Virus record (IMG/VR): IMGVR_UViG_3300032321_002024
Coordinates: 128,001-192,000 of that record
DNA length: 64,000 bases
DNA from: a virus
Taxonomy: Duplodnaviria; Caudoviricetes
Reading direction: 5' to 3' (one strand)
Part shown: one piece after another, positions 58,256 to 59,296 of the stretch
Layout of the letters: each line of letters opens with the position of its first letter
How positions within the stretch are numbered: the first letter of the stretch is position 1
Program-made: the position numbers and the translations under genes
Notes under the pieces: generated by a model
Seen by the model: the letters and a program-made list of their open reading frames with translations, nothing else
Told to the model about the DNA's origin: nothing
The model's database searches: none

Positions 58256-58287
58256 TTTGGTAGAATTAAAACTTTTTACTAATTTTG
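58256..58287 (+). promoter_or_regulatory. Bacteroidota-type sigma70 promoter for leader/tRNA array
   Basis: TTTG (58256-59), 20 nt, TAATTTTG (58280-87); a TAATATATA motif also lies at 58319-58327. Confidence 0.6.
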
Positions 58288-58332
58288 TGTAAAATAAGAA
58301 CAAAAGAGAAAAACTTTTTAATATATAAAGAA

Positions 58333-58434
58333 ATGACAACAAATCGCACACATAAGCATTTTAGTAAATCGAGCAAGTGGTTTAGCACCCAGTTCGGTAC
58401 TGAGAAAGTATTGTGTGATTTTTCTACACTATAA
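58333..58434 (+). CDS. Putative attenuator leader peptide (33 aa)
   Basis: MTTNRTHKHFSKSSKWFSTQFGTEKVLCDFSTL; codons 5-18 match the downstream tRNAs; stop codon in the apex of the antiterminator hairpin. Confidence 0.75.
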   Translation: MTTNRTHKHFSKSSKWFSTQFGTEKVLCDFSTL

Positions 58435-58471
58435 TGTAGTAAATTATAAGACAATATTTAAAGTCCGAACT
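58391..58471 (+). promoter_or_regulatory. Antiterminator hairpin
   Basis: Nested helices AGTTCGG/CCGAACT, ACT/AGT, AAGTATTGT/ACAATATTT, GTGATTT/AAATTAT, CTACA/TGTAG; sequesters the terminator 5' arm. Confidence 0.75.
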
Positions 58472-58497
58472 TCAAAAGAGTTCGGACTTTTTTGTTT
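58460..58497 (+). terminator. Intrinsic terminator (attenuator) upstream of tRNA array
   Basis: AAAGTCCGAACTT-CAAAA-GAGTTCGGACTTT followed by TTTGTTT. Confidence 0.88.
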
Positions 58498-58507
58498 ATA
58501 TCATTTT

Positions 58508-58580
58508 GGAATGGTGGCAGATCAGGTGATTGCGCTGGACTGAAAATCCAGAGGAGTGGGTTCGATACCCACCCGTTCCA
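58508..58580 (+). tRNA. tRNA-Phe(GAA)
   Basis: GGAATGG/CCGTTCC acceptor; CTGGA-CTGAAAA-TCCAG; TTCGATA T-loop. Confidence 0.92.
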
Positions 58581-58589
58581 CAAAATTTA

Positions 58590-58662
58590 GGACTCGTAGC
58601 TTAATCGGGAAAGCACTCCGCTTTTAACGGAGGGAGAGTGGGATCGTAACCCACCGGGTCCA
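58590..58662 (+). tRNA. tRNA-Lys(TTT), A54 variant
   Basis: GGACTCG/CGGGTCC; CTCCG-CTTTTAA-CGGAG; T-loop ATCGTAA. Confidence 0.88.
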
Positions 58663-58670
58663 CTAAATAT

Positions 58671-58743
58671 GATTTCGTAGCTCAGTTGGTAGAGCACCGC
58701 ACTTTTAATGCGGGGGTCGAGGGTTCGAACCCCTCCGGGATCA
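58671..58743 (+). tRNA. tRNA-Lys(TTT)
   Basis: GATTTCG/CGGGATC; CCGCA-CTTTTAA-TGCGG; TTCGAAC. Confidence 0.93.
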
Positions 58744-58745
58744 CT

Positions 58746-58818
58746 GTGAATGTAGCTCAATTGGTAGAGCGCTTGATTGTGATTCAAGAGGTAGCGGGAT
58801 CGTAACCCGTCATTCACC
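58746..58818 (+). tRNA. tRNA-His(GTG)
   Basis: GTGAATG/CATTCAC, C73; CTTGA-TTGTGAT-TCAAG; position -1 is T, not G. Confidence 0.9.
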
Positions 58819-58822
58819 AAAT

Positions 58823-58893
58823 ACGTCATACAGACATGGTGTCGGTCAGGTCTCCAAAACCTCGACGGGTGGGTTCAATTCCTACATGGCGTG
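58823..58893 (+). tRNA. tRNA-Trp(CCA), reduced D arm
   Basis: ACGTCAT/ATGGCGT; AGGT-CTCCAAA-ACCT; GTGGG-TTCAATT-CCTAC. Confidence 0.8.
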
Positions 58894-58901
58894 CTAATAA
58901 T

Positions 58902-59030
58902 GGGGATGTAGCTCAGTGGTAGAGATTAAACTTCTCTTTTGAAATTTTACCTTGTAAGAGTGTTGATTGAAAGAGTTACTTCGTATATTTTGAACATATA
59001 AGGTCGTTGGTTCGAATCCAACCATCCCCG
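58902..59030 (+). ncRNA. tRNA-like RNA with 57-nt insert in the D stem (Y-RNA-like or intron-containing); anticodon TGA
   Basis: GGGGATG/CATCCCC acceptor, canonical D and T loops, TATAT-TTTGAAC-ATATA arm; insert 58925-58981. Confidence 0.75.
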
Positions 59031-59036
59031 CTAAAT

Positions 59037-59109
59037 AGTTTCGTCGTTCAACTGGACAGGACACTCGGCTACGAACCGAGAAATGAAGATTCGACTTCTT
59101 CCGAGACTA
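59037..59109 (+). tRNA. tRNA-Arg(ACG)
   Basis: AGTTTCG/CGAGACT; CTCGG-CTACGAA-CCGAG; GAAGA-TTCGACT-TCTTC. Confidence 0.9.
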
Positions 59110-59118
59110 CAAAAAAAA

Positions 59119-59202
59119 GGAAGAGTAATTAAGCTGGCGCTTGACCTAGTCTTGAAAACTAGTGGTACTGAAAGGTATGGGGATCGATACCTCACTCTTC
59201 CG
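59119..59202 (+). tRNA. tRNA-Ser(TGA), probable 8/4 fold
   Basis: GGAAGAGT/ACTCTTCC; 6-bp D stem; CTAGT-CTTGAAA-ACTAG; long variable arm; G73. Confidence 0.85.
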
Positions 59203-59209
59203 CAAAAAA

Positions 59210-59296
59210 GGAGAATAAACTAATCTGGTGATTAGGACCGCCTGCTAAGCGAGTCGCACGTTGAATTTGTGTGGGGTTCAATTCCTCTGTTCTCCG
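59210..59296 (+). tRNA. tRNA-Ser(GCT), 8/4 fold
   Basis: GGAGAATA/TGTTCTCC; CTAATC-TGGT-GATTAG; CGC-CTGCTAA-GCG; long variable arm; GGGG-TTCAATT-CCTC. Confidence 0.85.

Follow-up and report, generated by a model that had tools for sequence, protein, structure and literature searches.

Leader codons that match the tRNAs encoded downstream: a probable attenuator of a phage tRNA array

Introduction

The purpose of the tRNA genes carried by phages is a long-standing open question, to which there are two rival answers: compensation for codon usage, or replacement of host tRNAs that have been destroyed. The locus considered here raises this question in a particular form, since a promoter, a short open reading frame (ORF) and an intrinsic terminator precede a tRNA array, and the codons of the ORF name the tRNAs that follow. 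An initial annotation, made from the sequence alone, had seen in this arrangement an attenuator controlled by ribosome stalling. The analysed stretch (hereafter the window, 64,000 nucleotides) corresponds to positions 128001–192000 of a virus record that comprises 262,603 bases, has a G+C content of 29.8% and is estimated to be 84% complete.

Organisation of the locus

The locus begins with a promoter of the form TTTG-N19-21-TAnnTTTG, which we take to be the Bacteroidota consensus (Table 1). A matching motif lies upstream of other tRNA units of the genome and also of orthologous leaders, and this form of promoter ahead of tRNA units suggests that the host of the phage is a Bacteroidota bacterium. 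No gene for an RNA polymerase beta subunit was found in the phage genome or in four related records, so that transcription is presumably carried out by the host enzyme. A second motif, located just ahead of the leader, is a candidate phage late-promoter element: ATATATA occurs at most 30 nt upstream of 67 of the 253 long ORFs of the genome, and ATATA precedes 47 of 49 orthologous leaders. The genome also codes for an Rnl1-type ligase and for Ro60; RtcB was not found across five related records, and no tmRNA was found above cut-off, though SmpB is present. A T4-like major capsid protein is encoded by two of the relatives.

The promoter, the 33-codon ORF and the identity of its codons 5–18 are exactly as initially annotated. 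The start context of the leader features A at positions –6, –12 and –13, all of which are positive start-context determinants in Flavobacterium (PMC6847099), yet G at –3. The match of 13 of the 14 codons of this stretch to the downstream array was upheld, with a chance probability of approx. 6e-6 for the best window of the 32-codon frame, given phage amino-acid usage. It is also specific, in that 12 of the 13 codons from 5 to 17 match their own array, as against 0–2 of 13 for the other four arrays of the genome.

The array consists of eight tRNAs and one tRNA-like gene, in agreement with the nine genes first proposed. Six of them (Phe-GAA, two copies of Lys-TTT, His-GTG, Trp-CCA and Arg-ACG) are called by ARAGORN at default settings, whereas Ser-TGA and Ser-GCT appear only at a relaxed threshold, or as matches to the tRNA-Sec model below its cut-off of 47. 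The remaining tRNA-like RNA is conserved in relatives. The two tRNA-Lys(UUU) copies differ at pair 31:39. A separate promoter between terminator and array would have spoken against control by the leader; the only near-match to a –7 box between the terminator and tRNA-Phe (at 58501) lacks a –33 box and would place the start inside tRNA-Phe, and no usable promoter was found in this interval.

Table 1. Features of the leader, the predicted switch and the tRNA array (positions in the window).
Feature	Position	Strand	Evidence
Bacteroidota-type promoter: TTTG (58256–58259), 20-nt spacer, TAATTTTG (58280–58287)	58256..58287	+	sequence
TAATATATA motif, candidate phage late-promoter element	58319..58327	+	motif counts; putative function
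Leader ORF, 33 codons; ATG at 58333, stop at 58432–58434	58333..58434	+	sequence; orthologues
Sensor codons 5–18 (Arg, His, Lys, Phe, Ser, Trp)	58345..58386	+	array match; footprint folding
Region 1, 5' arm of predicted protector helix 1:2, overlaps codons 9–14	58359..58374	+	folding; orthologue pairing
Region 2, partner of region 1 (protector) or region 3 (antiterminator)	58391..58405	+	folding; orthologue pairing
Antiterminator inner stem, leader stop codon in its loop	58406..58459	+	folding; sequence and length vary among orthologues
Intrinsic terminator (regions 3 and 4, 13 bp) with U tract	58460..58497	+	folding, –17.1 kcal/mol; orthologue pairing
tRNA-Phe(GAA)	58508..58581	+	ARAGORN; Rfam
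tRNA-Lys(TTT) copy 1, G31-C39	58590..58663	+	ARAGORN; sequence
tRNA-Lys(TTT) copy 2, A31-U39	58671..58744	+	ARAGORN; sequence
tRNA-His(GTG)	58746..58818	+	ARAGORN
tRNA-Trp(CCA), D arm atypical	58823..58894	+	ARAGORN
tRNA-like RNA, long insert between D and anticodon arms, no clear identity	58902..59030	+	Rfam tRNA 45 bits; fold
tRNA-Arg(ACG)	59037..59110	+	ARAGORN
tRNA-Ser(TGA), arms non-canonical	59119..59203	+	relaxed ARAGORN; tRNA-Sec model 45.5 bits, cut-off 47
tRNA-Ser(GCT), arms non-canonical	59210..59297	+	relaxed ARAGORN; tRNA-Sec model 45.9 bits, cut-off 47

Leaders and arrays in the genome and in relatives

The arrangement occurs five times in the same genome, as five tRNA blocks that each lie behind a short ORF and a terminator. 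Each of the five leaders holds every amino acid of its own block, and jointly the blocks cover all 20. Of the other four leaders, one has a run of Tyr and Glu codons and is followed by tRNA-Glu and tRNA-Tyr; one has a run of Ile(ATA), Ala and Gly codons, followed by tRNAs for Ile (TAT), Gly and Ala; a third devotes 22 codons to Thr, Asn, Met, Leu, Val, Ile, Cys and Arg(AGA), and its block comprises precisely the tRNAs for these; and the last, with Gln, Pro and Asp codons in a run, leads into two Asp tRNAs, a Pro and a Gln tRNA. In unit 2, a promoter match was noted between the terminator and the tRNAs (genome position 193012), and given this match the block may be partly ungated.

Four related records (135–476 kb) and further viral contigs yielded 83 distinct units, 58 of them with complete arrays, in which the codon content of leaders and the content of their arrays were compared. 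Pooled over these 58 units, the match between sensor codons and their own array is 68.6% (544 of 793), a value biased downward because automatic picking of region 2 misplaced the sensor window of genome units 3 and 5 (six codons only); with permuted arrays the match is 22.4% (maximum of 33.4% in 5000 permutations). When the leader is read in frame +1 or +2, it falls to 22.7% or 14.4%, respectively, and codons past the sensor give 23.8%. When a single representative is retained for each of the 22 leader clusters, the values are 68.1% versus 23.7%. Leader codons and array content thus co-vary in relatives, as an attenuator of the kind initially proposed would demand.

For two amino acids the correspondence extends to isoacceptors. 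Arg codons are CGN in 8/8 cases with CGN-box-only arrays and AGR in 6/6 with AGR-box-only arrays, and Ile codons are ATY in 11/11 with GAT-only and ATA in 16/17 with TAT-only arrays, counts which stem from related units and are not independent, so that p values overstate. No isoacceptor signal was seen for Ser and Leu in the units compared. The partition of amino acids among blocks itself varies between phage groups, and the leaders follow. The code is divided over two long leaders in L059; Pro, Lys, Thr, Tyr, Gln and Gly are grouped in L098, L131 and L158, and Glu, Tyr, Asn, Asp, Cys, Met and Arg in L162. Ser and Arg tRNAs that are split off have their own Ser/Arg leader, Gln split off has a poly-Gln leader, and where the Glu/Tyr and Ile/Gly/Ala blocks are merged, the leader is merged too (L323, L352).

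Orthologues of the leader in the window were retrieved by a metagenome scan that used only the sensor codons and took no account of helices or tRNAs; it gave 73 matches. In all 73, an ATG lies in frame a few codons ahead, which bears out the conservation of the ORF. Of the 62 orthologues with sufficient sequence, 53 have a called terminator, and in almost every array the Phe, His, Trp and Lys tRNAs come first. The Ser codons are kept even though a separate Ser/Arg leader exists in most orthologues, and a CGN codon is kept in 7/22; CGC is present in all three phages that read straight through the Arg and Ser tRNAs (this one, L039 and L071).

Predicted RNA switch

Folding confirmed the two structures that had been recognised in the sequence, i.e. 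the 13-bp terminator and the alternative 81-nt hairpin. The terminator stem (58460–58490) is followed by a U-rich tail and is the sole terminator-like site within 55000–64000. The stretch 58391–58471 folds as a single hairpin of about –25 kcal/mol (z –4.9), whose apical loop carries the leader stop codon. Helix 1:2, in which region 1 would protect region 2, is an addition to the structures of the initial annotation. With it, the full classical set of helices is predicted: 1:2 (–14.3 kcal/mol), 2:3 (–25.2 kcal/mol) and 3:4 (–17.1 kcal/mol).

The evidence from pairing differs between these helices. Among 26 aligned orthologues, the core of antiterminator 2:3 is 100% paired and both partners have changed in 3 of 6 pairs, although these changes represent only about two or three evolutionary events; the terminator is 97.6% paired, and both partners have changed in 5 of 8 pairs. 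The compensatory changes sought are thus present in these two helices, if from a small number of independent events. For helix 1:2, 95% of cells are paired in 26 orthologues, with covariation not above shuffles and a weak association between codons and arm (p=0.011). Regions 2, 3 and 4 vary in concert among orthologues: terminator arms combined with leaders of their own type gave –10.3 and –10.5 kcal/mol, as against –3.8 and –2.0 kcal/mol with leaders of the other type.

When the full transcript of the window unit was folded to equilibrium with ribosome footprints, the terminator won at every ribosome position, so that the switch must be kinetic and decided before region 4 is made. The informative fold is therefore that of a transcript cut at the terminator loop, before region 4, in which the cost of freeing the 5' arm of the terminator was computed. 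For the window unit, this cost is 1.7 kcal/mol without a ribosome and 1.2–1.9 kcal/mol with the A site on codons 2–6; it is 4.9–9.2 kcal/mol on codons 8–17 and 1–2 kcal/mol from codon 19 to the stop. The same off-on-off profile was obtained in silico in 55 of the 58 units (medians of 2.0, 9.4 and 1.4), and codons within the on-window match the array in 70% of cases, compared to 30% outside it. Constrained by footprints, the cut transcript is thus predicted to switch in the sense that the initial annotation had foreseen.

The effective sensing window computed in this way spans codons 7/8 to 17/18. To regard all 13 matching codons as sensors appears slightly overstated, as Arg codon 5 is marginal, at the edge of this window, and Ser and Arg codons persist in orthologues in which the Ser/Arg tRNAs lie behind another leader. 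The Ser codons of the leader in the window would also serve as a structural arm, in the predicted helix 1:2. Lys, His, Phe and Trp codons are the safest sensors, because Ser and CGN codons persist in orthologues with a separate Ser/Arg leader.

Cultured phages and host chromosomes

A tblastn search with the leader against cultured-phage records found nothing, and the examples among cultured phages were reached by way of tRNA DNA. In Cellulophaga phage phi10:1 (KC821618.1), a leader at 31467 contains an unbroken series of ten Trp, Ser, Tyr, Cys and Phe codons, which coincides exactly with the computed on-window, and precedes Tyr, Trp, Phe, Ser and Cys tRNAs. In phi19:1 (KC821607.1), of which the upstream 70 bases are 94% identical to those of phi10:1, a His/Gln/Arg/Leu/Pro leader lies before Pro, Gln, His, Leu and Arg-ACG tRNAs. 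Between these two phages, leader and array were exchanged as one cassette. Three cassettes are present in phi4:1 (KC821632.1) and one in Tenacibaculum phage Gundel_1. The crAss-like phage DAC15 has tRNA genes but no such leader, and the system is therefore not universal in phages of Bacteroidota.

The same build was also detected in chromosomes, ahead of tyrS in Sphingobacterium and Chryseobacterium, with a Tyr/Phe-rich leader, and, in Cytophagales, ahead of Ro60 and rtcB, where leader composition is mixed. Of 80 chromosomal matches, just 2 lie ahead of tRNAs; both come from short MAG contigs, possibly of phage origin, and one has a leader that is nearly that of a phage. Leaders of this kind appear to be in use in the host group, from which the phages may have acquired them.

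Proposed mechanism and trigger

Replicate units, co-variation of codons and arrays, compensatory pairing in antiterminator and terminator, and footprint geometry all support the reading first put forward, ribosome-mediated transcription attenuation acting as a feedback loop on tRNA supply, to which we assign a probability of roughly 0.9 on comparative and modelling grounds. Translation of the leader, coupling and its timing, and regulated read-through are what we infer for its operation. Host RNA polymerase would begin at 58256–58287 and a ribosome would load on the leader. During normal decoding, the ribosome would cover region 2, leaving region 3 free, so that the terminator forms and the tRNAs are not transcribed; in the absence of a ribosome, helix 1:2 would hide region 2 and the terminator would form as well. 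A ribosome stalled at a Lys, His, Phe, Ser or Trp codon (approx. codons 8–17) would cover region 1 and expose region 2, upon which helix 2:3 would take the terminator arm before synthesis of region 4 and the tRNA block would be transcribed. The new tRNAs would then read the stalled codons, making the loop self-closing, and five such OR-gates would cover all 20 amino acids in the genome.

Such a circuit would sense slow decoding, whatever its cause. We lean, by a small step, towards loss of usable tRNA in infection, through host anticodon nucleases or bulk decay, as its main natural trigger. This trigger is favoured because extra tRNA closes the loop only if tRNA is missing, because matching reaches isoacceptors, because the blocks span the whole code including Arg-ACG, for codons rare in phage genes, and because the genome encodes the Rnl1-type ligase and Ro60. 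Rescue of a nuclease-depleted pool by a phage tRNA is known for tRNA-Lys of T5 against PARIS (PMC11464382), and phage tRNAs with anticodon-loop variants can rescue pools depleted in this way (PMC10264068). A more far-reaching version, about which we are evenly divided, is codon-resolved surveillance across the genome, with attenuators that would detect nuclease-destroyed tRNAs and release only the matching, nuclease-resistant block.

The same switch could instead be a homeostat of supply and demand with no link to defence, a block being topped up when the flood of phage mRNA makes its tRNAs limiting. We consider this possible, if rather unlikely: isoacceptor matching, such as the ATA-rich leader before tRNA-Ile(TAT), and the blindness of the circuit to the reason why a codon is slow are as expected, but the five blocks cover all 20 amino acids and not a biased subset, leader 1 uses CGC and its block supplies Arg-ACG although CGN makes up only 13% of Arg codons in phage genes, and the presence of Rnl1 and Ro60 suggests RNA damage. 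Improbable in our view is a classical sensor of amino-acid starvation, responding to uncharged tRNA and inherited from host attenuators. Leaders of trp, his and ilv operons work in this manner (PMC10272879), host attenuators of the same build precede tyrS, and the same codons would hold up the ribosome under starvation; more tRNA would not, however, cure a missing amino acid, so that the loop would stay open, and the leaders track isoacceptors (Arg, Ile), not amino acids alone. More doubtful again is a general switch for translation stress or timing, in which any ribosome slowed, for instance by an antibiotic or by host shut-off, or a phage antiterminator would open all blocks at once and codon identity would be incidental, as the mixed composition of the leaders before chromosomal Ro60 and rtcB and the exposure of region 2 by codon-independent stalling might suggest. 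Against it, leader codons keep pace with the content of their block when blocks are split, merged or swapped, and do so in unrelated phages, with other frames and post-sensor codons at background. That there is no regulation at all, with a terminator that is always active or a hairpin that serves processing, an ORF present by chance or as a vestige, and tRNAs made from another promoter, is very improbable, for although the terminator is the equilibrium structure and one genome unit has a downstream promoter, this leaves the codon match in the window (P of approx. 6e-6 alone), the five replicate units, the compensatory 2:3 pairing and the poor –7 box at 58501 to be accounted for.

If attenuation by tRNA loss is confirmed, leader codons would be a readable record of the tRNAs attacked by host immunity, and the design would offer compact reporters of tRNA damage. 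A block-specific switch also makes the question of purpose testable, as the circumstances in which a block opens would reveal what it is for. Cultured pairs that carry the design, Cellulophaga baltica with phi10:1, phi19:1 and phi4:1, together with Tenacibaculum phage Gundel_1, would allow this to be tested now.

Comparison with known systems

Searches against Rfam returned no leader, T-box or riboswitch family; the best leader matches, Thr_leader (19.8 bits, cut-off 55) and L20_leader (22.8 bits, cut-off 58.7), both cover the terminator stretch. T-box riboswitches bind uncharged tRNA directly, with no translation, and tie antitermination to tRNA status. The latter feature is shared by the system described here, in which it is predicted to operate through a translated leader; a T-box itself was ruled out, with no match up to E 10. 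In translational attenuators of the ermC and secM type, a conserved nascent peptide controls the start site of a downstream protein. Such an arrest peptide was ruled out as well, since the downstream sequence is non-coding and leader composition shifts with the array. The chromosomal leaders of tyrS, Ro60 and rtcB have the same build and the same GTTCGG/CCGAAC arms, which were imposed by the search pattern and are no proof of descent, but control protein genes.

Among systems that involve tRNA arrays, the trn operon (L-array) of Anabaena PCC 7120 is repressed by TrcR (PMC8421152, PMC10272220). It resembles the phage units in being silent by default and on under translational stress, and differs in its protein repressor, which acts at the promoter, and in having no codon-specific blocks; the NAR paper on this operon makes no mention of attenuation or a leader. 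With a terminator as the switch, repression of the TrcR type is unnecessary to model the phage units. The tRNAs of phage counter-defence likewise replace host tRNAs lost to nucleases, but no conditional expression or sensor is described for them (PMC11464382, PMC10264068), and attenuation and promoters are not mentioned in one of these studies (PMC10264068). No description of attenuator control of tRNA genes was found in a literature search in which subscription journals were poorly covered.

The closest likeness is to the leader-peptide attenuators of amino-acid operons, such as trpL and hisL, the multivalent thrL and ilvGMEDA, and pheM before pheST. A further multivalent example is ilvBNC (PMC10272879). 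The shared features are a short leader ORF with regulatory codons, a predicted set of mutually exclusive helices (1:2, 2:3 and 3:4), an intrinsic terminator before the first regulated gene, and the use of one leader for several amino acids. A short ORF, codons that match, an intrinsic terminator, an antiterminator and, in silico, the stall geometry were all found at the present locus, which on this evidence works like a multivalent leader-peptide attenuator. It does not belong to the families known from amino-acid operons, however, because it controls tRNAs and matches no Rfam leader: the downstream genes are not those that make or charge the sensed amino acid. Whereas enzymes are regulated in amino-acid operons, here the product is tRNA and would directly remove the signal; up to 13 amino acids are represented in a single leader among relatives, with a match at the level of isoacceptors; and a phage-borne, genome-wide set of switches partitions the whole code. 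If true, this would be the first case of tRNA genes under feedback from their own decoding, and would extend attenuation to a new class of targets in a loop that closes at the level of the isoacceptor.

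Arrangement and promoters of the leader-tRNA units

The Ser/Arg cassette (loci L045 2577, L044 and L041 4283) has a visible promoter of its own in one relative and none in two, and in the latter two the arrangement suggests attenuators acting in series. At another locus, L076 (8916-9180), a tandem pair of near-duplicate leader-terminator units precedes a single tRNA array. Within the genome under study, a promoter match lies between the unit 2 terminator and tRNA-Glu (L001, genome 193012-193043), and could possibly serve as a bypass of the unit 2 attenuator. The motif ATATATA is found no more than 30 nt upstream of 67 of the 253 long ORFs genome-wide, at two favoured distances, and also directly upstream of leaders (58319-58327 in the window unit). 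Its placement makes it a candidate late promoter.

Unusual tRNA genes and other RNA-related features

Both Ser tRNAs of the window (59119-59297) have non-canonical arms and are missed by default ARAGORN; their top-scoring model is tRNA-Sec, slightly below cut-off. The two tRNA-Lys(TTT) copies (window 58590-58744) differ in the anticodon stem, with G31-C39 in one versus A31-U39 in the other. In E. coli, whether PARIS cleaves depends on this region (PMC11464382).

The genome also encodes two copies of tRNA-Ile with anticodon TAT (see table). Such tRNAs are rare in bacteria, and ATA is the sole Ile codon used in the leader upstream of the first copy.

RNA-related features of the phage genome (genome positions refer to the whole 262,603-base record)
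Feature	Position	Remarks
SmpB gene	window 54351-54785	
tRNA-like RNA	window 58902-59030	long insert
Ro60/TROVE gene	genome 62659-64110	
tRNA-Ile, anticodon TAT (two genes)	genome 193460-193534, 197839-197913	
GOLLD RNA	L003 2502-2895 (genome about 221500-221900)	281.7 bits; flanked by tRNA-Met genes
T4 Rnl1-type RNA ligase gene	genome 261281-262603	

The tRNA-like RNA is kept in all four relatives. It has GAGTTACTTCG in common with a non-coding stretch upstream of the phage Ro60 gene in three of the five records (genome 62285-62295 in this phage), and may be a Y-RNA-like partner of Ro60. Directly upstream of the Ro60 gene itself lie a long non-coding region and then a terminator. Although SmpB is encoded, no tmRNA exceeded the cut-off in the portion of the genome that is assembled (84%).

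Leaders in cultured phages and bacteria

Several tRNA genes and leader ORFs lack annotation in the records of Cellulophaga phages phi10:1, phi19:1 and phi4:1 and Tenacibaculum phage Gundel_1 (L380, L381, L382, L383). One of the leaders is gp075 of phi4:1, whose start codon is uncertain. A leader with a tRNA array is also carried by two bacterial MAG contigs, L231 and L232. The leader of L232, labelled Deltaproteobacteria, is nearly the same as that of phage locus L055; this contig is probably a mis-binned piece of phage. In Bacteroidota chromosomes, leader attenuators are predicted upstream of tyrS, where the leader is Phe/Tyr-rich, Ro60 and rtcB (L214, L203 and others; L236, L219; L242), and these apparently represent previously undescribed cases of attenuation.
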